Assembly (NCBI GenBank): GCA_041649755.1
Contig: JBAZMK010000005.1
Span: 8,597 to 72,596 of the forward strand
Direction of reading: 5' to 3'
Source: Candidatus Pacearchaeota archaeon
GTDB lineage: Archaea; Nanobdellota; Nanobdellia; Pacearchaeales; GW2011-AR1
Length of the DNA: 64,000 bases
Both the position numbers and the translations under genes were made by a program. Of the stretch, positions 3,835-46,446 are shown piece after piece (within the stretch, counting starts at the first letter, position 1; the number at the start of each line of letters is the position of its first letter). The notes under the pieces are model-generated. The model did no database searches. It was given only the letters and a program-made list of their open reading frames with translations, and was not told where the DNA came from.

Positions 3835-4324
3835 AATAATTTTTTAATAAATAAGAAGTGATAATTGTTGCTATCATTCCCAATATAAAGGAGATTATAT
3901 AACCTATCCAGTTTCTTTTAATATTCCTTTTTTCAGAATTTATTTTTGATAATATCTTTCTACTAATAGTATCTAGATTGTCCCATAGATCTTCATAATC
4001 ACCTAAGGGTAAATTATTACAATCTACTTTTGATTTTATTTTTTTAAGAGATTTTTCCTCTTCTATAAGAATATCTTTAAATTTCTTTATCTTCCCTTCT
4101 AGATTTATTATAAATTTTAAAAGAAAGGTCTTCCATTCAGACTTACATTTATTATCTATATCAATAGCTTCAGTTTTATTTATATTTTTCTTTGAAGTAT
4201 AATGCTCTATTAGGTCAGAGATATAATCATAGTCTTCTTTGGGTAGATTCTTCTGATAAACTCTATAAAGATTATTCAATGAAATAATATATTGGGTGGT
4301 ATCCATTATTACCCTCCCCACCAA
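3824..4324 (-). CDS. Hypothetical 166-aa protein with C-terminal transmembrane helix, between hsdM and hsdS
   Basis: ORF overlaps the hsdS start by 11 nt. C-terminal hydrophobic segment IGYIISFILGMIATIITSYLL. No known domain. Confidence 0.45.
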   Translation of the reverse strand: MVGRVIMDTTQYIISLNNLYRVYQKNLPKEDYDYISDLIEHYTSKKNINKTEAIDIDNKCKSEWKTFLLKFIINLEGKIKKFKDILIEEEKSLKKIKSKVDCNNLPLGDYEDLWDNLDTISRKILSKINSEKRNIKRNWIGYIISFILGMIATIITSYLLKNYFGW

Positions 4325-7800: not shown

Positions 7801-8331
7801 TTATCTATTTATTTTCTTGTAAATAATATCCTTATAGTCTTTTCCTTTAGTGAGTGTCGAACCCTTTATTTCGCCCTCTTTTTCATAACTTGATTTTAAG
7901 AGTATTTTTTCAACAGATTTATTCAACTCATGAAAATATGCGTATACCTTAAGATACTTCAAATTATCAAATATGAATGAAGTCATCAATTTTACAGCCT
8001 CGCTCATGTAACCCTTATTCCAATAATCCTTTGCAGTCCAAAAACCAATTTCACCTTTTTTATTTTCTTCATCCAAATCAAAAAATCCAATGACTCCTAC
8101 AAAATCTTCGCTTGCTTTTTCATAAACTCCGAAATGATAAGACTTTTTTTCTTTCATCTTTTTATTGCAACTCCTAATATACATTTTAGCATCTTCTAAT
8201 GACTTTGAAGCCTTATAGGGTCCAGAATATTCGTTTAACTTGGGCTCCTTAGAAAATCTATGAAGTTTCTCAGCATCTTTGTCGCCCAAGGGTTTCAGGA
8301 TTATCTTTTCTCCAACAATTTTAGTTTCCAT
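7801..8331 (-). CDS. GNAT family N-acetyltransferase (RimJ/RimL-like)
   Basis: GNAT fold motifs: GVIGFFDLDEENKKGEIGFWTAKDYWNKGYMSEAVK. Last gene of the minus-strand operon that begins with the rSAM peptide locus. Confidence 0.7.
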   Translation of the reverse strand: METKIVGEKIILKPLGDKDAEKLHRFSKEPKLNEYSGPYKASKSLEDAKMYIRSCNKKMKEKKSYHFGVYEKASEDFVGVIGFFDLDEENKKGEIGFWTAKDYWNKGYMSEAVKLMTSFIFDNLKYLKVYAYFHELNKSVEKILLKSSYEKEGEIKGSTLTKGKDYKDIIYKKINR

Positions 8332-9579: not shown

Positions 9580-10453
9580 TTTCTTCTGTTAATAAAATAA
9601 CTGAATCTTGTTTGTCTTCTTTTCCTGGAACAATTGATTTGAATCTTCTTTCCAGGTAGTTGAAACCAAATCTTCTAAAAGTTTCTTGTCTTAGTTCACT
9701 TCTATTAATCAACTTTCTATTTTCACTAAAACCTTCTCTTGTATCATAAACATATGCTGCACAAATAATTCCTCCAAGAGTTAAATGCTTTCTTAAAGGA
9801 ACGAGAATCTCCTCACAGAAAGAATCTAAATAATTAGTTTCTCCAGGAAATAGATCTTGAGAATAATCCGCCAAGTTAGAAAGAAGGATGACCTCAAAAT
9901 TATCTTCTAACTTAGAAGTCAGATCTCTAACATCTGAATTAATTAATTTAACTCTTCCATTTCTAATATTAATCCGGGTTCTAATATAATTAAAATCGGA
10001 ATGCAAATAAAGATTGCAAACAGTTCTTAATTCATTTATATCAAACCTCTTATTAAATAACTTAGATTGTCTTATTTGTCTACCATCTTTTTTATATTTC
10101 TTATAGAGACTATCAAAAAAACTTACGCACTCTTCAGACAAGTTTCTTTTTAAACCCTCATAAATTCTGTGGTCCATCGTTCTTTTGCTTCCTGTAAAAA
10201 AATAATCTTTAAAATCTCTTATATCTAAATGCTGTAAAGCTTTAATCTTTAATTCGGCGAATAATAAAGCAAGACGATTTATATCAAAACCAACAACACT
10301 TTTAGCTCCAAAAAAGAAAGGATTGATTACGTGGTCTCCAGAGCCAATAACAGTCAACACATTTTTCCCTTCAAAACCTAACTCTCCCATATATTCTGCG
10401 AGATTTTCTGTTGTAAAAGGGTATACTTTAGATCTTTCTCCAAATGAAGGCAT
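9563..10453 (-). CDS. SAM-binding Rossmann-fold protein (methyltransferase/aminocarboxypropyl-transferase-like, DUF3419-like)
   Basis: Motif I-like VLTVIGSGDHV and an acidic post-I strand (VVGFDIN). Overlaps its neighbours on both sides. Confidence 0.45.
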   Translation of the reverse strand: MPSFGERSKVYPFTTENLAEYMGELGFEGKNVLTVIGSGDHVINPFFFGAKSVVGFDINRLALLFAELKIKALQHLDIRDFKDYFFTGSKRTMDHRIYEGLKRNLSEECVSFFDSLYKKYKKDGRQIRQSKLFNKRFDINELRTVCNLYLHSDFNYIRTRINIRNGRVKLINSDVRDLTSKLEDNFEVILLSNLADYSQDLFPGETNYLDSFCEEILVPLRKHLTLGGIICAAYVYDTREGFSENRKLINRSELRQETFRRFGFNYLERRFKSIVPGKEDKQDSVILLTEENGRIK

Positions 10454-15789: not shown

Positions 15790-16245
15790 ATGGCAGAAAA
15801 GATAGGGATTAGGAGCGCAACAGTAACTATAAGGGATGGTAAAGTATTGTTGGTAAATTCAAAATATGATGATGGAGAATATTATCTATTTCCGGGAGGA
15901 GGAGTTGAGTTTGGAGAAACTATTGAAGAGGGAGCAATAAGGGAAACTTTCGAAGAGACTGGATTTAAGGTAAAAATAGAGAAATTAATCCATATAAATG
16001 AATTTATCTATAAGGAAGATTGGAATAAAAGATCTATAACCGCGTTTTTCTTAGCTTCTCCAAAAGAAGAATCTTTAGAAAATATCTCTAATGATAATGG
16101 GAAAATAAAAACGGTTGAATGGATAGACATATCCAAATTAGAAGACTTAGATATTCGACCGGAGATTCTCTCTAAGATTTTAAAAGAATATAAAGAGGAT
16201 TTAAATAAAATTGTTTCAAGCTATAGCGTTGATTTTAAAGAGTAA
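15790..16245 (+). CDS. NUDIX hydrolase
   Basis: Canonical Nudix box GGGVEFGETIEEGAIRETFEETG. Confidence 0.8.
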   Translation: MAEKIGIRSATVTIRDGKVLLVNSKYDDGEYYLFPGGGVEFGETIEEGAIRETFEETGFKVKIEKLIHINEFIYKEDWNKRSITAFFLASPKEESLENISNDNGKIKTVEWIDISKLEDLDIRPEILSKILKEYKEDLNKIVSSYSVDFKE

Positions 16246-16248
16246 ATT

Positions 16249-16863
16249 ATGGATTTTCGACAAATATTCTTCGATCTTGATGATACGTTAGTAAATACTA
16301 GAGAAACTATTTATAAGAGAATTGGAATTCTATTGGAGGAGTTTCAATTGAGAACTGACCCTTATAAAATATATGATTTGCTTGATCTTAAAGATCGAGA
16401 AGAAAGGTTAAAAGGTTTAGTAAAAAATCCTGCAGATTTTTGGGAGCGATATGAACAACTTAGGAGAATAGTCAGAGTATCAAGTATCTCGGGAGTAATC
16501 CCAACACTTGAAGAACTACGTTCTAGAAATATCCCTCTTGGGATAATTACGAATAATAGACACGGTAAAACCTTGGAAAAATTAACTTCTGCTAAGATAA
16601 ATAGCAGGATTTTTATTGGAGGTATTTACAGTTGTTCAGAAATCGATTTTCTTAAACCCTCTTCAGAAATAGCAAAAATAATAAATTTATTTCCTGAGAA
16701 AGTTTTATATGTTGGAGATGATTTAATTGATTATGAATTTGCACAAAATATGGGCGTAGATTTTTATGGCGTTTGCACAGGATTTTATGGCAAAGAAGAC
16801 TTTTTAAAAAAAGGTTTAGGCGTTGAAAGAATCTTTCCAAATATTAGAAAGGCTTTTAAATGA
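16249..16863 (+). CDS. HAD-superfamily hydrolase (phosphatase)
   Basis: Motif I IFFDLDDTLVNT, motif III/IV region ...KVLYVGDDLIDYEFAQNMG. Confidence 0.8.
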   Translation: MDFRQIFFDLDDTLVNTRETIYKRIGILLEEFQLRTDPYKIYDLLDLKDREERLKGLVKNPADFWERYEQLRRIVRVSSISGVIPTLEELRSRNIPLGIITNNRHGKTLEKLTSAKINSRIFIGGIYSCSEIDFLKPSSEIAKIINLFPEKVLYVGDDLIDYEFAQNMGVDFYGVCTGFYGKEDFLKKGLGVERIFPNIRKAFK

Positions 16864-17715
16864 TTTACAAAAAGATTCTATATTCATCAATATGGTGCCA
16901 ATTAGAAAATATAATAGAGGTTCTGAGTTATTTTTTTTACTAACTTCATCATTGATTTTCAATATTATCCTAGAAAAATCTTCGTTAAAATAATTTTTAT
17001 TTGAAAAGGACGTTATGATTTCTCCAAAGATTTCTCCAATTCTTTTAAGTTCATCTATAGAGACATTTGAATAATTTTTCTTGCCCCTATTTTTATAATA
17101 AATTAATATACCCTTTTGGATGTTTTTTAAAGATTCAAATCCCGTTTTACATAGTAAATAATTACTTCCAATTCTTTGCGAAAAAAAGATTTGTCTTAGA
17201 AATAAACTTATTTTAGAAGAAACTTCATAAGATATATCTTCAATTTCTTCAATATTTCTTAGATTTTTATTCTGTAACTCTTTTTGAAGAGATTGAATTT
17301 GCCATTTCAATAATGATAAAATATTTATAATACTTTTATTATTATCAATATTAAACTTATGATTTGAAAATAATATTTGTGCGTCCTTTTTCCCTCTCTC
17401 TAAAATGTCAGCACCTACCAAATTGTCGATAACTTTTTTTATTACCTTATAATCTTTTTCTGTCTTAAATAAAATATTAATTTCAGAAAAACCCTCAGAA
17501 TAGAGCCTGTAGATTTCTTCAAGATTTGTTTCATCAAAGAGAATAACCTTTGATTCTTTAAGTATTTCCAAATTGTCAGCGGTTATTAAGATTGATTCTC
17601 CTTCAACAGTAACTTCTAATTCTTGACCTTTTTTTATCTCTTTCTGTTTAATCCAATTTTTTGGAAGACTAATCATATAACTTGCAGGCCCCTGTCTAAT
17701 AACTCTCCTTTTCAT
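16816..17715 (-). CDS. Hypothetical protein with N-terminal AbrB/SpoVT-like swapped-hairpin domain (possible PhoU-type regulator)
   Basis: N-terminus VIRQGPASYMISLPKNWIKQKEIKKGQELEV resembles archaeal AbrB-domain regulators. The rest is helical. Confidence 0.4.
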   Translation of the reverse strand: MKRRVIRQGPASYMISLPKNWIKQKEIKKGQELEVTVEGESILITADNLEILKESKVILFDETNLEEIYRLYSEGFSEINILFKTEKDYKVIKKVIDNLVGADILERGKKDAQILFSNHKFNIDNNKSIINILSLLKWQIQSLQKELQNKNLRNIEEIEDISYEVSSKISLFLRQIFFSQRIGSNYLLCKTGFESLKNIQKGILIYYKNRGKKNYSNVSIDELKRIGEIFGEIITSFSNKNYFNEDFSRIILKINDEVSKKNNSEPLLYFLIGTILMNIESFCKSFKSLSNIWKDSFNA

Positions 17716-17788
17716 TTTATTTAAATAATATATACATAATAATTGTATATAGACTACATTTATATATATTTCTATTGTAACGATAATT

Positions 17789-18763
17789 ATGGTTATAATT
17801 GGAATAGCTGCATATAATGAAGAAAATAACCTTTGTGAAACACTACCTTATTTAGAGGATCAATTAATGAAAATGAAGATAATCAAAGACTCTAAAATTT
17901 TAGTTTGTTTAAATGGTTGTACCGATCAAACTGAAAGAATTGTAAAGAGAATGCAAAGGGAATATAACAATATTGCAATCCTTCACTCTAAAAAAGGCAA
18001 ATTAAAAGCACATAAAAAGATTTTGGATAATCTACCTAACGGCGAGATAATATTTTTTTCGGACGCAGATGTATTTGTTCCGCGAAAAACGATTCAGAAT
18101 ATATTGAATGAATTCAAAAATAATAGAAACGCAAAAATCATCTCAGCATATCCTTATGCGTTAAAGTTAGGGAAATCTAATCTTTATGTAAAACTAGTAT
18201 ATAATGTTTTAAATATTAAAAGAATATATCCAAAAATTGAAGTAGCAGAGAAAGATGTATCCAAATTTCATGGTAATGTGGAGGATAAATTTTTAAAAAA
18301 ATCCAGAATATATTTTCATGGGAGATTTTTTGGTATTAAAACCAAGGAGGTATATCAATTCCCTAAAAAGGGCAGTAAGATAAGAGGAGATGACACTTTT
18401 CTAACAAGATGTACTTTGTTAAAATATGGTGGGGGATCAATAAAGGTTTTATTTAAATCTCCAGTTTATTGTTCACCGGTAACTTCAGTTAAAGAATATT
18501 TAAAATCTTGGTATCGAATTAGAAAAGATATTGATCTTATTGGAGAAGAATATCCCGAATATAAAGAGATAAACAAAAATGTTGAGATGACCATCAATTG
18601 GGATTATTTAAAAAAAATGAAAACTTCAGTTAAGATTTATGCAGTCCTATTTTTTATATTAAGAAAATATGAAAAGTATTCTTTTTTTATATTAAAGAGA
18701 TATATAGATTTAGATAATATTTGGTCTTATGATAAGAAAGATTCAATAAGGAGGTTTAAATAA
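17789..18763 (+). CDS. Glycosyltransferase family 2
   Basis: N-terminal GT-A signature VIIGIAAYNEENNL plus FFSDADV (DxD-type). Confidence 0.7.
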   Translation: MVIIGIAAYNEENNLCETLPYLEDQLMKMKIIKDSKILVCLNGCTDQTERIVKRMQREYNNIAILHSKKGKLKAHKKILDNLPNGEIIFFSDADVFVPRKTIQNILNEFKNNRNAKIISAYPYALKLGKSNLYVKLVYNVLNIKRIYPKIEVAEKDVSKFHGNVEDKFLKKSRIYFHGRFFGIKTKEVYQFPKKGSKIRGDDTFLTRCTLLKYGGGSIKVLFKSPVYCSPVTSVKEYLKSWYRIRKDIDLIGEEYPEYKEINKNVEMTINWDYLKKMKTSVKIYAVLFFILRKYEKYSFFILKRYIDLDNIWSYDKKDSIRRFK

Positions 18764-18764
18764 A

Positions 18765-19883
18765 ATGAAAATTGCAATCCATAATGCACAAATAAGCCAC
18801 TATCTTGGTGGGACTGAAAGGGCAATATATCTAGAAATAAAAAATTTATTAAAAATTGACCCCGATTTAGAAATAACCCTCCTAACAACAAAAACAGAAA
18901 ATGAATCTATCTTATTTAAAAAAATCAAAGCTCTTCAATCAAATAGATTTAAAATTGTTTTATTTGATATTTCTAAGATCTCAATTGAAATAAAAAGCGA
19001 TTCAAATACATCTGACAAATGGCATATGGAATCTATGCAATTTGGATTAAGAACTGGCGATTATTATCTAAAAAATAATTTTGACTTAGTTCTTTATCAT
19101 TTTACTACAGATATTATGTTTCTGCCAAAAAAGTTTAAAAGAGTTTTAAATGTTCATGGTACTCCTAGCAAAAGATCCTTACTAGATGAAAATTGTTTAG
19201 AAAGTCCGGATGTTATTATTTATACAACTAATGACATTAAAAATATAATTGAAAAAATGCATCCTTTTACTAAATCAAGAATAAGTAAGGTAATTTATCT
19301 TGGAACCCCGGTAGATAATCGTATTTTTCCAAAAAAGGAAAGGATAATCGATATTTTATTTGTAGGAAGATTGATAAAAATTAAAGGAGTGGATTTATTA
19401 ATAAAGGCGGTACATAAACTGAAGAATAATAAAAACTTAAAGATTTCAATCATAGGAAAAGGTCCAGAAGAAAAAAATCTCAAACTTCTAGTTAAAAAAT
19501 TGGGATTAGAAAAAAATGTAGTTTTTCACTCTTTTGTTTCTGATAAAAAATTATTGAACATTTATAGAACAACAAAAATAGCGGTTTTTCCTTCTTATAA
19601 GAAAGAAGGTATAATATTGGCAATGCTAGAAGCAGCATCTTTTGGTTGTGGACTGATTGTTTCAAATTGTTGCGGGATGCCAGAATTTATTGAGAATAAT
19701 TCTGAAGGATTATTATTTGAACCAAAAAATATATCTGATTTATCTAAAAAGATAAATTTCTTGTTGAATCATCCAAATAAAAGAGAGGAGATGGGTAAAA
19801 AAGCTACAGACAAGATAAATAATTATTGGAATGAATTATCTAAAACAAAGGAACTTTACGAATATCTTCGGGAGGTAATATGA
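18765..19883 (+). CDS. Glycosyltransferase family 4 (GT-B)
   Basis: C-terminal GT4 motif EGIILAMLEAASFGCGLIVSNCCGMPEFIENNSEGLLFEP. Confidence 0.8.
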   Translation: MKIAIHNAQISHYLGGTERAIYLEIKNLLKIDPDLEITLLTTKTENESILFKKIKALQSNRFKIVLFDISKISIEIKSDSNTSDKWHMESMQFGLRTGDYYLKNNFDLVLYHFTTDIMFLPKKFKRVLNVHGTPSKRSLLDENCLESPDVIIYTTNDIKNIIEKMHPFTKSRISKVIYLGTPVDNRIFPKKERIIDILFVGRLIKIKGVDLLIKAVHKLKNNKNLKISIIGKGPEEKNLKLLVKKLGLEKNVVFHSFVSDKKLLNIYRTTKIAVFPSYKKEGIILAMLEAASFGCGLIVSNCCGMPEFIENNSEGLLFEPKNISDLSKKINFLLNHPNKREEMGKKATDKINNYWNELSKTKELYEYLREVI

Positions 19884-20746
19884 AAAAAACAATTTATTTA
19901 GATTCTAAAGGATCGGTATGTAGACTTACGGGAACAAACAGCGTAATCGAAGAAATTATAGAAGATGATTTTACAAAACATTTTATTCCTGATTTAAGAA
20001 TTCGTCTAAAATATAAAGATCCTGCTATAAACGTTATAGCAAAGGAAATAAAGGTTCCAACTATGATCTCTTATCCTAATGTAACATATAAACCAAACTT
20101 GCCTCCAAGAGATATTGTTTCATTATGCGAGTATTTATTAGAAAGAAATAGACAAGAAAAAAAAGGTTACTATTCACTAAGTTCTGCTACTGCTTCTAGA
20201 AATGGAGATTCAGTAATTTTTTTTGCTGGCGCAACAAATTCTGGGAAAACAAGTGGAATGCTGGATTTAATTCAAAACCATGGATTTAGTTTTTATTCTG
20301 ATGAACATACCTTAATAGACTTAGAGAATAAAAAGGTTGTAGGAGGTTCAAGATCCATAGCAACAAGAAAAGAGATTTTAAAGAAAAGATTGTCTAACGT
20401 AGGGGAATTTCTTTTGAAAGATTTAGATGATGATTATGAAAAAAAGGCTAGACTTTTTATTTATCCCCATATAGACCATGGACTAGATAAACCCATTCAA
20501 TATCAGTTTAGCCCCTTAGATTTTCACTGGCTGCTCTCTCGAGAATTTGGAGGAGTGATAAGAGGCGTTGTTAAATTCACCGATCATTTCAGATACCCTC
20601 TTCCCTCTCTTGACACTCGGAAGTTATCTAAAATAAGAGCTCATAGAACACAACAATTTGCAAACTTTGTTCCTTGTTATTATTTCCAAGGATCCTTGAG
20701 CCAGATGTCAAATTTTGTAGAGGAGAAATTAAAAGAAAATGATTAA
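19880..20746 (+). CDS. HPr-kinase C-terminal-domain-like P-loop protein
   Basis: VIFFAGATNSGKTSGMLDLIQNHGFSFYSDEHTLIDLE parallels HprK GxSGxGKSE...GHxLVADD. Confidence 0.5.
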   Translation: MKKTIYLDSKGSVCRLTGTNSVIEEIIEDDFTKHFIPDLRIRLKYKDPAINVIAKEIKVPTMISYPNVTYKPNLPPRDIVSLCEYLLERNRQEKKGYYSLSSATASRNGDSVIFFAGATNSGKTSGMLDLIQNHGFSFYSDEHTLIDLENKKVVGGSRSIATRKEILKKRLSNVGEFLLKDLDDDYEKKARLFIYPHIDHGLDKPIQYQFSPLDFHWLLSREFGGVIRGVVKFTDHFRYPLPSLDTRKLSKIRAHRTQQFANFVPCYYFQGSLSQMSNFVEEKLKEND

Positions 20747-21509
20747 ATTAAATGAAAAAAAGATATTGCATACCCTTAAGAAAGATGACAAAGTCTTAGA
20801 TATCGGCGGGTGGGATAAGCCATTCAATAGGGCTAATTATGTTTTAGATATTCAGCCATATAAAACAAGGGGGTTTCATGGGAGTCAAGGGGGAAAACAA
20901 GAGTTTTTTACAGAAAAGACTTGGATAATCCATGATATTTCTTCTAGAAAAAAGCTGCCTTTCAAAGATAATTTCTTTGATTTTGTTATTTGCAGTCATG
21001 TTTTAGAAGACATACGAGATCCATTATGGCTTTGTTCTGAGATTAAGAGAATTTCTAAAAGGGGGTATATTGAATTTCCTTCAATTTTCGCTGAATTAAC
21101 AAAAGGAATTGATAATAATAAATACGTCGGATATTACCATCATCGATGGTTAATTGAATTAAAAAAAAATAAGCTTTATTTTAGATTTAAACCTCACTTT
21201 ATACATAATGACAAAAGGTATCACTTTCCAAAAACATATCTTAAACGTATAACCGAGGAGAAAATTAACACTTTTTTATTTTGGGATGATGAATTTGAAT
21301 TTTCAGAAATTATTCAAATTAGTCGAGATAAAACAAAAAGATACCTAAATAGGATTATATTGAAAGAAGGGTATAGAAAAAAAGCCACACTTTTTCTAAA
21401 CTTTATAGATAAAATAAAATATAACTATAAATATATTAAAAAAAAACTTAACAAGAATACATATTGTCCAAGGTATATGGATGTTGAAGAGTATCATTCA
21501 ACGGCGTAA
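20739..21509 (+). CDS. Putative SAM-dependent methyltransferase-like protein
   Basis: VLDIGGWDKPF ... FDFVICSHVLEDIRDP resembles Methyltransf_11/23 motifs I and post-II. The match is weak. Confidence 0.4.
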   Translation: MIKLNEKKILHTLKKDDKVLDIGGWDKPFNRANYVLDIQPYKTRGFHGSQGGKQEFFTEKTWIIHDISSRKKLPFKDNFFDFVICSHVLEDIRDPLWLCSEIKRISKRGYIEFPSIFAELTKGIDNNKYVGYYHHRWLIELKKNKLYFRFKPHFIHNDKRYHFPKTYLKRITEEKINTFLFWDDEFEFSEIIQISRDKTKRYLNRIILKEGYRKKATLFLNFIDKIKYNYKYIKKKLNKNTYCPRYMDVEEYHSTA

Positions 21510-21656
21510 TGATAATCTTTATTTTGCGTTCAAAAAGAAAGACAAATTGAAATAGAGTAAATTTCAACTTAGAACAGTTAAGAGAAATTATACAATATAA
21601 TCTCAGAACTATCTTGTTGGTTTAAAAAGGTTCAATGCTCCGCTAGAGCACTATCA

Positions 21657-21816
21657 TGCTCCCACCGGGATTTGAACCCGGGTCTCCGCCGTTCTCCAAT
21701 GAATCTCAAAGAGATTATCGGTAGTGGTTCAAGCGAACCTGAAATTTATTGTCTCACCGACTAAAATTTCCCACCTCTTGAGAGGGCGGTATCCTTGGCC
21801 TCTAGACTATGAGAGC
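21657..21816 (-). tRNA. tRNA-Glu(CUC) candidate with ~87-nt intron at canonical 37/38 position; no encoded CCA
   Basis: Exon 1 (21816..21779) is GCTCTCATAGTCTAGAGGCCAAGGATACCGCCCTCTCA. Exon 2 (21691..21657) is CGGCGGAGACCCGGGTTCAAATCCCGGTGGGAGCA. The 7-bp acceptor pairs GCTCTCA/TGGGAGC, the T-arm is CCGGG-TTCAAAT-CCCGG, and the anticodon stem CCGCC/GGCGG forms only after the intron is removed. Loop is CUCUCAA. Isotype and intron boundaries need tRNAscan confirmation. Confidence 0.5.
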
Positions 21817-21850
21817 ACATAAGAAAGATACAAAGAGGCTTTTAAAATTT
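21788..21850 (-). repeat. 63-nt unit (tRNA 5' exon part + upstream promoter), copy 1 of tandem direct repeat
   Basis: Identical except for 1 nt to 21932..21994. Contains a TTTTAAAA TATA-like box 24-31 nt upstream of the tRNA 5' end. Confidence 0.7.
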
Positions 21851-21931
21851 CCCATCTCAAGTTGAGAGGCGAGTAAAACGCTCCGAACAACACTAAAATG
21901 AAAATCTTGTTGCGAGGTGCATTTTGCGAGA

Positions 21932-21994
21932 GGTATCCTTGGCCTCTAGACTATGAGAGCATATAAGAAAGATACAAAGAGGCTTTTAAAATTT
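21932..21994 (-). repeat. Copy 2 of promoter + tRNA 5'-part duplication (orphan 5' half, no matching 3' half found downstream)
   Basis: Same 63 nt, including GCTCTCATAGTCTAGAGGCCAAGGATACC and the TATA-like box. The downstream sequence diverges and regains similarity to the copy-1 intron start (GGGAAATTTTA) before running into the copy-1 promoter. Confidence 0.6.
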
Positions 21995-22003
21995 GCCCTC
22001 AAA

Positions 22004-22333
22004 TTATTTTTTCTCGTCAGTCTTTTTTCCCTTAGATTTTTTCACCCTAATAACAAAATCTTCTAAAGACATCTCTAAAGAAGAAACTGATGAAGGACTC
22101 CCAGAAGTATCAATAATATGGGTACCCTGAATAACCTCTGGGCTTCCATTAAAATGAGCTACATAAGGATAAAGATGGATTACGTAACTATTAGGAAAAC
22201 GAGAATCACACGCCTTTAAAATCCCTGTCCCCCCGATTCCACCAGATACATCTACCCTAACGGGCTTACCCAAATGAACACTATAAATTGTATCATGGAT
22301 GTTTACATTACCCGAACTAAACCCAAAAACCAT
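22004..22333 (-). CDS. Hypothetical 109-aa protein downstream of alaS
   Basis: ORF with Gly-rich segment DVSGGIGGTGILKA. No confident family. Confidence 0.35.
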   Translation of the reverse strand: MVFGFSSGNVNIHDTIYSVHLGKPVRVDVSGGIGGTGILKACDSRFPNSYVIHLYPYVAHFNGSPEVIQGTHIIDTSGSPSSVSSLEMSLEDFVIRVKKSKGKKTDEKK

Positions 22334-22387: not shown

Positions 22388-24136
22388 CTATTCCAAAGCA
22401 GCCTTTATTCTCCTAACACCCGAACTAGACGACTCTTCTTTCAATATCTTAAAATGTCCAAGCTCCCCTGTATTCTTAACATGGGGTCCTGCACAAATTT
22501 CCTTGCTAAAATCTCCTATAAAGTAAACCTTCACCTTCTCCCCATATTTGCTCTCAAAAACACCCTGAGCACCCTTCTTCTTTGCATCATCTAAAGACAT
22601 TTCTTCCATAACAACAGGTATACCTTCTGAAATCTTCTCATTAACAATCTTCTCAACTTCCTCAACTTCTTCTTTAGTCAATTTCCTGTCAAAATTAAAA
22701 TCAAACCTAATCCTCTCAGGGGTTATATTAGAACCCTTCTGATGAATATCTGGCTTATTCAAAACAACTCTCAAAGCCTGATTAAGAAGATGTGTCGCCG
22801 TATGAAGACGAGTAGTAGCCTCACTATTATCTGCAAGACCACTCTTAAATTTACCCGCAGAAGCCGTTCTTGACAGAGTCTTATGTCTTTCAAACTCCTC
22901 GTTAAAACCCTTTTCATCAACATTGATACCACTTTCTTTAGCCATCTCTCTTACCATCTCTATAGGAAATCCATAAGATTGAAAAAGCAAAAACGCATTC
23001 TTCCCGTCAACAACCTTCTTTTCCTTAGTTAACTTCTCAAAAAGACTCAATCCTTTTTCCAAAGTCTTCTCAAACCTCTCCTCTTCAAGATTTATCTCTG
23101 AAAAAACCCTTTCCTTATTCCTCTGCAAGACCTCATAATCGTCATAAATTTCAAAAACTTTTTCTGCAATAGGATTAATTAAATCAATTCCAACAAAACC
23201 GAGTTTCCTTAAATTAACAATCGCCCTCCTCAAAAGCCTTCTTAAAACATAACCTCTTTCGGTATTTGAAGGAACAACCCCATCAGCAATTATAAAAACA
23301 GAAGCTTTAACATGGTCAGCAATAATTCTCATTGTCCTTTCATTACCTTCATAGGACTTTCCGGACAAATGTTCTACTTCCTCAATAATCGGCTTCCACA
23401 TGTCCGCGAGATAATTATCATCCAACCCATTCAGAACCGCAATTGTTCTCTCCACCCCCATTCCCGTATCAATATTCTTTTGCCCCGCTTCAGAATAACC
23501 CCCCTTAGCGTCTTTTTCATACTGCATCAAAACATCGTTCCATATTTCAACCCAGTTCTCGTCCTCTGGATTAAAAATTTTAGGGGCTGGCTTGTGAGAC
23601 TTCCAGTAAAACATCTCTGTATCAGGTCCGCAAGGTCCAGCTCCCGCAGTTTCCCACCAGTTATCCTTTAAGTATACTATTCTTTCTTTAGGTATACCTA
23701 AAAAGTTCCAGATTTTATAAGATTCTAAATCCTTTTCGGACTTGTTGTCCCCTCCAAAAACAGAAACCGCCAGCCTTTCCTTAGGTAGCTTAAGAACATT
23801 TATCAGGAAATCAAAACTCCATTCAATAGCTTCTTTTTTAAAATAATCTCCTAAACTCCAGTTGCCTAACATTTCAAAGAATGTATGATGAAAAGAATCC
23901 CCTACATCGTCAATATCCCCCGTTCTAATGCACCTCTGGACATTAACCAACCTCTTGCCTTGAGGGTGCTTTTCCCCAAGCAAAAAAGGAACCAAAGGAT
24001 GCATTCCTGCAGTCGTAAAGAGAACCGTCGGATCATTTTCAGGAACAAGTGAAGAATTTTTCACCTCTTTATGCCCCTTAGACCTAAAAAATTCTATATA
24101 TTTCCTTATCAATTCTTTCCTTTCCATCAATTGCAA
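22388..24136 (-). CDS. alaS: Alanyl-tRNA synthetase, short form (catalytic + tRNA-recognition + editing domains, no C-Ala domain)
   Basis: Catalytic-domain motifs FTTAGMHPLVPF and RCIRTGDIDDVGDSFHHTFFEMLGNWSLGDYFK. Editing-domain motifs HTATHLLNQAL and CAGPH. Confidence 0.85.
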   Translation of the reverse strand: MQLMERKELIRKYIEFFRSKGHKEVKNSSLVPENDPTVLFTTAGMHPLVPFLLGEKHPQGKRLVNVQRCIRTGDIDDVGDSFHHTFFEMLGNWSLGDYFKKEAIEWSFDFLINVLKLPKERLAVSVFGGDNKSEKDLESYKIWNFLGIPKERIVYLKDNWWETAGAGPCGPDTEMFYWKSHKPAPKIFNPEDENWVEIWNDVLMQYEKDAKGGYSEAGQKNIDTGMGVERTIAVLNGLDDNYLADMWKPIIEEVEHLSGKSYEGNERTMRIIADHVKASVFIIADGVVPSNTERGYVLRRLLRRAIVNLRKLGFVGIDLINPIAEKVFEIYDDYEVLQRNKERVFSEINLEEERFEKTLEKGLSLFEKLTKEKKVVDGKNAFLLFQSYGFPIEMVREMAKESGINVDEKGFNEEFERHKTLSRTASAGKFKSGLADNSEATTRLHTATHLLNQALRVVLNKPDIHQKGSNITPERIRFDFNFDRKLTKEEVEEVEKIVNEKISEGIPVVMEEMSLDDAKKKGAQGVFESKYGEKVKVYFIGDFSKEICAGPHVKNTGELGHFKILKEESSSSGVRRIKAALE

Positions 24137-26894: not shown

Positions 26895-27452
26895 ATGGAA
26901 TGTTCAAAAAATTTAATAAAATTTATATTAGATGACCTGACCAACGGGAGAACATTCAAAAGAACCTGCATAAGTTATGCCCGAATATCTCTTGGTATTC
27001 ACGAAGATACGGCTGAAGAGCTTTATCAAGAATTATGCCTAAGAGCACTATCAAAAAACAGATATACCCCAAGAAAAGGAGAACCTAAAGGGTATTTATA
27101 CCAGGCGTACAGAAACTTATGTAGGGGGCATCTAAGAAACAAAAGAAACAGAAAAGAAACCTTAGAATCAAGTCTATTTGATAACTCTGAAGGAGAAGAT
27201 TCTCTTCTAGAAGTTATAGATAGCGAAACCGTCTCGCCACAAGAATTACTAACTCACCAAGAAGACGAAGAGACACTACAAAAAGTTATAGGAACTCTTA
27301 GAGAAAGAAATCAAAAAGTTCTAATAAAAAGATACTTTGAAGGAAAAAGCCATAAAGAAATAGCCCAAGACACAGGATATAAAGTCAGTTCAGTAAAAAG
27401 CAGAATTTACAGGTCAATAAGAAAACTGAGAAGTATCACGTGGCCTGATTAA
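26895..27452 (+). CDS. ECF-type sigma-70-like factor (regions 2 and 4)
   Basis: Region-2-like TAEELYQELCLRAL...PKGYLYQAYRNLCRGHLRNKRNR matches the AEDLxQExFL...WLxxIARNxxIDxxR pattern. Region-4 HTH LQKVIGTLRERNQKVLIKRYFEGKSHKEIAQDTGYKVSSVKSRIYRSIRKLR. Confidence 0.7.
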   Translation: MECSKNLIKFILDDLTNGRTFKRTCISYARISLGIHEDTAEELYQELCLRALSKNRYTPRKGEPKGYLYQAYRNLCRGHLRNKRNRKETLESSLFDNSEGEDSLLEVIDSETVSPQELLTHQEDEETLQKVIGTLRERNQKVLIKRYFEGKSHKEIAQDTGYKVSSVKSRIYRSIRKLRSITWPD

Positions 27453-46374: not shown

Positions 46375-46446
46375 GGGCTCGTAGTTTAATGGATAGAACA
46401 ACAGGTTTCGGCCCTGTCGATGGGAGTTCGATTCTTCCCGAGCCCG
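46375..46446 (+). tRNA. tRNA-Arg(TCG)
   Basis: GGGCTCG-TA-GTTT-AATGGATA-GAAC-A-ACAGG-TTTCGGC-CCTGT-CGAT-GGGAG-TTCGATT-CTTCC-CGAGCCC-G. Acceptor, D, anticodon and T stems all pair. U33 and anticodon UCG are in the standard loop positions. No encoded CCA. Confidence 0.8.

Follow-up and report, generated by a model that had tools for sequence, protein, structure and literature searches.

The 64,000-nt stretch of DNA analyzed here, referred to below as the window, comes from a Candidatus Pacearchaeota archaeon (assembly GCA_041649755.1, contig JBAZMK010000005.1, positions 8,597 to 72,596 of the forward strand) and carries, on its minus strand, an intron-containing tRNA-Glu(CUC) gene that is preceded by a repeat of its own promoter and 5′ exon. 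We conclude that this arrangement probably consists of a working gene, designated the D copy, and a duplicate of the promoter and 5′ exon, designated the upstream (U) copy, that is young, truncated, and non-functional. The reading is carried by the anatomy of the sequence, by a bulge-helix-bulge (BHB) motif that is accompanied by covariation, by the single copy of the gene in related genomes, and by the lack of a second 3′ half.

The tRNA-Glu(CUC) Gene and Its Splice Motif

The D copy is a functional tRNA-Glu(CUC) gene with a 160-nt pre-tRNA body at 21657–21816 (minus strand), as delineated by the Rfam tRNA model, by ARAGORN with introns allowed (-i), and by folding. The Rfam model aligns over its full length (1–71) with a score of 46.2 bits against a gathering score of 29, and it places an 89-nt insertion within the anticodon loop. 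ARAGORN returns a tRNA-Glu(ctc) with an 87-nt intron as the sole call in 21301–22300, with the intron placed two bases later than 37/38, which is an equivalent solution of the sequence. The 38-nt 5′ exon (21779–21816; tRNA positions 1–37) and the 35-nt 3′ exon (21657–21691; positions 38–73) flank the 87-nt intron at 21692–21778, which lies at 37/38 and whose structure is backed by constrained folding, BHB enumeration, covariation, and RNAalifold. The spliced product is 73 nt long and folds as a cloverleaf with a 7-nt loop, CUCUCAC, that contains U33 and the anticodon CUC; the discriminator is A73, and CCA is not encoded. A preliminary description of this DNA had proposed a tRNA-Glu(CUC) with an 87-nt intron at the canonical position, and the agreement of Rfam and ARAGORN bears this out, on a strand (minus) that was left unstated there. 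Parsing of the D copy likewise reproduces, to the letter, the acceptor (GCUCUCA/UGGGAGC), T arm (CCGGG-UUCAAAU-CCCGG), and anticodon stem (CCGCC/GGCGG) given in that description.

The preliminary description had also made the intron depend on compatibility with a BHB, and a strict hBHBh′ motif is indeed present exactly at 37/38. Its outer helix is the 5-bp anticodon stem, its 4-bp central helix pairs C32UCU35 with GGAG, its two 3-nt bulges are C36-A37/A and A-A/C38 (the slash marks the splice site), and its 2-bp inner helix is GA/UU, both pairs of which show compensatory changes in relatives. Exhaustive enumeration of strict BHB motifs over a transcript running from the U copy to the 3′ end recovers this canonical motif, and none of the other BHB-like matches yields a tRNA, with or without the U copy. 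Among the homologues described below, the central helix is paired in 98.9% of cells, with one compensatory change from C-G to U-A. The register given here is backed by the paired change of C32 to U and G to A at two related loci, L008 and L085, at which the one-base-shifted register drawn by RNAalifold fails. The D copy therefore shares with canonical archaeal BHB pre-tRNAs the 37/38 position, the two 3-nt bulges, the 4-bp helix, the outer and inner helices, and a cloverleaf once the intron is removed. It differs in that its intron is long (87 nt; 80–142 nt in relatives) and in that the sequence and the four-helix structure of the intron are kept across many species, which is unusual for such introns.

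The predicted D promoter at 21840–21853 (minus strand) consists of GGGAAA and a TATA box, TTTTAAAA, 23 nt upstream of +1, and is separated from the tRNA by a 23-nt leader (21817–21839, minus strand). A TATA-like box lies at approximately the same distance from +1 in the related loci and in the tRNA-Arg gene of the window. Transcription in archaea generally terminates at oligo-T tracts, and it is on this rule that the first T5 run, at 21624–21628 (minus strand) and 29 nt downstream of the tRNA, is the likely terminator. The trailer between the two holds, at 21636–21649 (minus strand), the sequence GCTCTAGCGGAGCAT, a mini-hairpin reminiscent of both ends of the tRNA, its first 5 and last 7 nt (GCTCT...GGAGCAT); the likeness may be the faint relic of a 3′-end duplication or may be due to chance.

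Anatomy of the Upstream Copy

Upstream of the gene, the segment 21788–21856 is directly repeated at 21932–22000 over 69 nt with 3 mismatches and a spacing of 144 nt. Within this repeat lies an inner block of 63 nt, from AAATTTTAAAAGCC to ...GGATACC, that is made up of AAA, the TATA box TTTTAAAA, the 23-nt leader, and tRNA nt 1–29, and that contains a single difference, A/G at −2. Alignment thus confirms the repeat reported in the preliminary description, namely a 63-nt block 144 nt upstream with one mismatch. The U copy proper is a truncated pseudo-5′-half at 21932–21960 (minus strand) that comprises tRNA nt 1–29 (positions 1–28) and is identical to the D copy at 29/29 nt. It is preceded at 21961–22000 (minus strand) by a 23-nt leader that carries the A/G difference at −2, by the TATA box TTTTAAAA (21984–21991), and by the upstream sequence GAGGGCAAA. 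A search of the 64 kb returns two occurrences of the 29-nt 5′ half and a single one of the 3′ half, against an expectation of 0 in shuffled sequence, in agreement with the earlier statement that the duplicate has no matching 3′ half; the 3′ exon of the D copy is the only one in the window.

What follows the 5′ half in the U unit is considerably less orderly. Inserted after position 28 is a segment of 60 nt without a traceable source, designated X (21872–21931, minus strand). The alignment scores of X against the intron, against the promoter plus exon, and against the spacer of a related locus, L097, all fall within the range of shuffled sequences (p 0.05–0.96), and on that ground we rejected X as a decayed copy of any of the three. 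Elsewhere in the window, or in approximately 1 Mb of related loci, only chance 13–14-mers of X are found. Between X and the D promoter lies the duplication junction, a damaged remnant of the anticodon loop and intron start, CGCCTCTCAA-CTT-GAGATGGGAAA, at 21848–21871 (minus strand). Compared with CCGCCCTCTCAA-GAGGTGGGAAA of the real gene, one C has been lost, CTT has been inserted, and one G has become A, and the remnant continues into the D promoter through AAATTTTA, a sequence common to the promoter and the intron start. The junction sequence GAGATGGGAAATTTTA is identical to the intron start, GAGGTGGGAAATTTTA, at 15/16 positions, which is the similarity at which the preliminary description had the duplicate rejoin the intron. 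Overall, the U copy has no 5′ strand of the anticodon stem, no valid loop, and no 3′ half; neither Rfam nor ARAGORN calls it, and the 144-nt U unit, folded in its entirety, does not stand out (z = −1.67). No T5 terminator is present between the U and D copies.

Origin of the Duplicate

The loci of the closest relatives each carry one complete gene. This is the case in L110/L111, in which the C-terminus of alanyl-tRNA synthetase (AlaRS), encoded next to the tRNA, is 84% identical to that of the window, as well as in L106 and L103, with AlaRS identities of 74% and 73%, respectively. The contig of a further relative with an 84%-identical AlaRS, L102, stops 41 nt past AlaRS and is uninformative on the tRNA. 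In L110, the order is a stop codon of an open reading frame (ORF), GGCAAATTTTAAAAGCC..., and one tRNA that is identical to the D copy at 157/160 positions, and global alignment reduces the window to L110 plus a 144-nt insertion. The U promoter directly follows the stop codon of ORF109, an ORF of 109 codons, and it matches the single promoter of L110/L111 in both position and sequence; judged by this match, it occupies the ancestral promoter position. The ancestral state is divided between the two copies, with the left flank GGC preserved at the U copy and the G at −2 preserved at the D copy, and substitutions specific to the lineage of the window are common to both copies. These observations argue that the duplication is lineage-specific and recent.

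The preliminary description had offered, as one of two options, a tRNA 5′-half pseudogene made by duplication, and it is this option that fits, since the closest relatives have a single copy and L110 differs by exactly the 144-nt insertion. Indeed, the locus presents a head-to-tail repeat, microhomology at the junction, and a copy without a product, alongside relatives that have only one copy.

From these sequences, we infer how the promoters would act, how the pre-tRNA would be processed, and how the recombination may have taken place, as follows. The ancestral state would have been an ORF stop codon, a promoter, and one tRNA, as kept in L110/L111. A local duplication-insertion of 144 bp would then have created the U unit, most likely through an illegitimate or unequal exchange in which the A/T-rich promoter GGCAAATTTTAAAAG paired with the similar intron start GGGAAATTTTAG; the 81-nt register between the promoter and the intron start is visible as a repeat (D3). 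The insertion of X, which may be foreign or untemplated, and the small errors at the breakpoint would have occurred concurrently with the exchange or after it. The predicted outcome is a promoter, a leader, nt 1–29, X, and the damaged remnant, fused to a second promoter.

With respect to expression, the D copy would be transcribed from a promoter made up of the TFB recognition element (BRE) and the TATA box TTTTAAAA. DPANN lineages have been reported to have the archaeal splicing endonuclease EndA (Kaneta 2018, PMC5829648). EndA would cleave each 3-nt bulge behind its second base, that is, after A37 and before C38, following which the exons would be ligated, ribonuclease P (RNase P) would trim the leader, and CCA would be added afterward. 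The U promoter, if active, would contribute only a long 5′ extension on the D pre-tRNA, to be removed by RNase P. Such read-through from U to D is plausible because the U copy has an undamaged BRE, TATA box, and spacing and because there is no T5 run on the way to the D copy.

Several features of the locus sit less comfortably with a young duplicate of this kind. The 3′ part of the U unit (X, the lost C, CTT, and the change of G to A) is far more altered than the 72-nt 5′ block with its one mismatch, and because the alterations cluster at the 3′ end, a simple unequal crossover is insufficient and a complex one-step event or a second insertion is needed. At L097, moreover, an upstream copy also ends exactly at nt 29 and is followed by a spacer unrelated to that of the window (p = 0.36). 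Random breakage does not predict such a shared end, which hints at a site-specific process or at selection. Finally, the junction could be read as a copy of the sequence upstream of the promoter (AATTTGAG-GGCAAA) instead of the intron start; these two sequences are too similar to each other, and the exact breakpoint is therefore ambiguous.

A Conserved Structured Intron

Homologous introns of 80–142 nt are present in more than 20 distinct tRNA-Glu(CUC) genes of related loci (for example, L094:2508–2613, L002:8741–8846, and L089:5761–5866). The homologues were drawn from tRNA-Glu genes that adjoin AlaRS in related genomes, from one metagenome scan with a conserved pattern of intron and 3′ exon, and from contigs with close homologues of AlaRS or ORF109. 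As the constrained fold shows, the interior of the window intron forms four helices, P0, P1 (a hairpin with the pentaloop GGUGA), P2, and P3, and RNAalifold, run on a MAFFT alignment, predicts P0, P1, P1b, and P2, helices with numerous compensatory pairs. In an alignment of 25 distinct homologues, pairing is kept in 97.1% of cells, and compensatory changes are seen at 25 of the 37 pairs, figures that are somewhat inflated by the fitting of the alignment to the covariance model (anticodon stem plus intron) from which they come. When the pairing partners are slid by 1–3 columns, pairing falls to 35–53%, and the MAFFT-based result points in the same direction as the model-fitted covariation. A search of approximately 1 Mb with the covariance model returns a single copy at every locus, and in the window it has no match outside this intron. 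Compared with Rfam, the intron matches only the tRNA family. The intron belongs to a conserved structured family specific to tRNA-Glu(CUC) in a Pacearchaeota-like clade, one that is not in Rfam and of which we found no description in the open-access literature searched.

The conserved element CGAUGAGA (CGGUGAGA in the window, L103, and L106) is a GRUGA pentaloop closed by a covarying 3-bp stem. A reading of this element as a C/D box or kink turn was rejected, as the covariation model places it in a pentaloop on a 3-bp stem without a conserved D box, and a test of the intron as a C/D-box small RNA (sRNA) returned only the CGAUGA/CGGUGA element within the 3-bp hairpin, the conserved CUGA being absent. 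The intron therefore resembles the C/D-box sRNA of the euryarchaeal tRNA-Trp intron in being a tRNA intron that is conserved across species and has a structure of its own, but it differs in having no C/D or C′/D′ boxes, its GRUGA being the pentaloop of a hairpin. A pseudoknot between the GRUGA loop and UCAUU, assessed by eye, was rejected as well, since it is lost in L103, L106, L008, and L085. An internal promoter at the intron start was also discarded: L088, L093, and L099 have GUCCUCG in place of the TATA-like run, with the helix intact. Because the TATA-like run can be replaced while the helix is kept, the constraint on the intron start is one of structure and not of a promoter.

In three homologues (L003:8739–8788; L095:1116–1170, minus strand; L099:1453–1506), an extra two-hairpin module of 50–56 nt directly follows the 5′ bulge. 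TCAAG repeats lie on the flanks of this module, and that of L099 contains a perfect 16-bp palindrome. The canonical BHB spans the entire enlarged intron in L003 (139 nt) and L099 (142 nt), and L095 was not returned by the strict search. The possibility that the module is a nested second intron was rejected, as no second BHB surrounds the insert in any of the three. The structure of the intron may serve as a scaffold for processing, or it may give rise to a stable, possibly circular, excised RNA.

Recurrent Partial Copies and Alternative Explanations

The window is not alone in having pieces of the exons near the gene. In 4 of 21 loci, namely the window, L097, L092, and L015, exact exon fragments of at least 13 nt are found no more than 1 kb from the gene. 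The arrangement in L097 (10050–10335) comprises nt 1–16 with their own promoter, an 88-nt insert, nt 13–29, a 53-nt spacer, and CCCTCTCA with the D promoter, and L012 carries a decayed form of the same remnant. In L092, nt 1–14 and a further 43 nt (57 nt in all) precede a complete but promoterless gene at 7845 (minus strand). In L015 (13055–13115), the last 16 nt of the tRNA are repeated 43 nt downstream. The partial copies that flank the gene in L097, L092, and L015 mark the locus as duplication-prone. Within the 88-nt insert of L097, approximately 35 nt (10138–10172), CACYGCTCRGTGTACCC(C)TTCTGCGGCTGGGGCA, recur intergenically 6 kb away at 3863–3897 of the same locus, and they may represent a small repeated element or a templated insertion.

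One account of this recurrence starts from the intron. If the intron were a functional structured RNA, for example, a stable circular product of splicing, then the mimicry of the BRE and TATA box of the same gene by its A/T-rich helix P1 could repeatedly spawn promoter-bearing copies, such as those in the window, in L097 and L012, and in L092. We put this forward tentatively, as a possibility that is on balance unlikely. Were it true, the window would be a fresh intermediate between intron-containing and split tRNA genes, with a promoter now located within the would-be intron of the upstream exon.

A second account holds that the repeat is the scar of a site-specific integration, in which the attachment site of an element (attP) matched the promoter-proximal 5′ part of tRNA-Glu, the part was duplicated as attL and attR, and the element was later deleted down to 75 nt. 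The 5′ or 3′ termini of tRNA genes are typical attachment sites in archaea. There is also a precedent in C. subterraneum, in which a 5′ fragment of tRNA-Thr upstream of the intact gene has been explained by integration (Sugahara 2012, PMC3293823). That fragment, tRNA-Thr-F, is likewise a direct repeat of the 5′ part of the tRNA upstream of an intact, intron-containing gene (PMC3293823). The 16-nt copy of the 3′ end downstream of the gene in L015 and the variability of the stretch between AlaRS and the tRNA among relatives also speak for integration, but it is mainly because the upstream copies of the window and of L097 stop at the same nucleotide that the model stays alive. On the other hand, only 75 nt separate the repeats in the window, which are 144 nt apart, with no ORF and no recombinase between them and no gene for an integrase or any other element nearby. 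The repeat extends beyond the tRNA to include 40 nt of lineage-specific promoter and leader, and the intervening DNA ends in the remnant of the anticodon loop and intron start, a right end that is a better fit to tandem duplication; in each of these respects, the window departs from tRNA-Thr-F. The 5′ half and X match no viral contig in IMG/VR, which is a weak negative, as the search was limited to exact matches. Taken together, we consider an integration scar unlikely.

Alternatively, the U unit may have been kept by selection as a tandem promoter or regulatory leader, either because a second promoter raises or regulates the expression of tRNA-Glu(CUC) or because a decoy 5′ half modulates folding or processing. 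In favor of this idea, the heavy damage to the U unit has spared its promoter, the spacing, and the first 29 nt, no T5 terminator intervenes before the D copy, and the complete gene of L092 must be read from the promoter that precedes its 14-nt exon fragment. An intact block is, however, also expected from a very recent event, and the U unit is absent from all of the closest relatives. Furthermore, the fold of the U unit is not unusual, and a decoy 5′ half would probably impair folding. That selection has kept the upstream unit is improbable.

The tandem arrangement could also be an artifact, in which strain variants were mis-joined during metagenome assembly; the source, contig k141_1289365 of ENA ERZ27247363, is indeed a metagenome contig assembled by MEGAHIT at k=141, which has the arrangement of the window and is identical over the stretches checked, and two Logan contigs of another run end at or near the locus. 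We find this very unlikely, as the unique segment X is physically joined in real DNA to both a 5′ half and a promoter, and since the repeat, at 69 nt, is shorter than k=141, it should assemble unambiguously. A second long contig with the same neighborhood is on record as well. One k=31 Logan contig (SRR8542065) ends within the repeat, immediately ahead of the base that varies between U and D, which is as expected if both copies are present in SRR8542065. A k=31 contig of that run, L109, ends at 21685, where the anticodon stem begins, past the shared T arm and acceptor; speculatively, such an end would be expected if another gene in the sample, for example, a tRNA-Glu(UUC), had the same 3′ half.

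Least likely is the proposal that the U copy serves as an additional 5′ exon, joined by cis- or trans-splicing to the one 3′ exon available, in the manner of the shared tRNA-Glu halves of Nanoarchaeum, which was the other option offered in the preliminary description and which did not survive scrutiny. Admittedly, the U copy has a perfect acceptor 5′ strand and D arm and, on the basis of its sequence, a promoter of its own (TTTTAAAA, 23 nt upstream of +1 and identical to that of the D copy), and by eye the junction CC/UCU-CGC-AA can mimic a central helix, bulge, and inner helix against GGAG. The copy nevertheless stops at position 28, before the 5′ strand of the anticodon stem; no BHB that links U nt 29 to the 3′ exon emerges from the enumeration, in which the outer helix had to be 3 bp or longer; the loop remnant CGCC-UCUCAA is one C short, such that a C would fall at position 33; and the relatives have no U copy. 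As the product would at best have the same CUC anticodon, nothing would be gained by the splicing of U. Candidate UUC or other anticodons in X or in the remnant were inspected by eye and rejected, as they lack a valid stem-loop context. Like the tRNA-Glu of N. equitans and the tri-split tRNAs of Caldivirga, the window has a promoter-bearing 5′ piece apart from a single 3′ piece. In contrast to those systems, its pieces have neither a complementary leader nor a BHB, the break falls at position 28 instead of a splice site, no complete cloverleaf, distinct isoacceptor, or alternative anticodon results, and a complete gene adjoins.

Genomic Neighborhood

The tRNA gene of this duplicated locus is flanked by AlaRS, the orphan ORF109, a methyltransferase, and glycosyltransferases. 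AlaRS (22388–24127, minus strand) is 55–72% identical to homologues in metagenome-assembled genomes of Pacearchaeota, Woesearchaeota, and Nanoarchaeota; its top matches come from genomes of Pacearchaeota and Nanoarchaeota, in line with a Pacearchaeota-like DPANN host. ORF109 (22004–22333, minus strand) lies between AlaRS and the tRNA and encodes 109 amino acids; NCBI names it as a hypothetical protein of Candidatus Pacearchaeota archaeon. It has no match in Pfam or PHROG and one homologue (46% identity) among 5.8 billion proteins, which is encoded at the corresponding place in L110/L111. What lies between AlaRS and the tRNA varies among relatives, and in L106 and L103 the tRNA follows AlaRS after approximately 50 nt with no such ORF.

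The glycosyltransferase and methyltransferase cluster at 17789–21509 converges on the 3′ end of the tRNA. Most of it is overlapped by a stretch (16000–20000) with a guanine-plus-cytosine content of 27%, compared with approximately 34% elsewhere, which may be a variable island for surface glycosylation. On the plus strand, an ORF of 185 codons at 26895–27452 has precomputed Pfam matches to Sigma70_r2 and Sigma70_r4, domains of a bacterial-type sigma factor, here in the genome of an archaeon, and it is kept in the same neighborhood of L102.

Implications

Two points of annotation follow from the locus. TRNA finders in their default bacterial mode overlook the D gene; over the window, ARAGORN in default mode misses tRNA-Glu and reports only the tRNA-Arg at 46375–46446. 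The upstream fragment, in turn, is at risk of being wrongly called as a split-tRNA half.

BHB introns at 37/38 and tRNA fragments beside tRNA genes are already known. Less ordinary is an intron family that is conserved, backed by covariation, and absent from Rfam, and its structure is open to experiments on a possible role, such as that of a scaffold for processing or of a stable circular RNA. The duplicate, too, is less ordinary in that the repeat includes a complete promoter and in that the event can be dated against relatives with a single copy. The locus, if it has been read correctly, is therefore a dated case of a promoter-bearing tRNA fragment that arose beside an intron-containing gene in DPANN archaea, and as such it is relevant to models of how split and disrupted tRNA genes came about.

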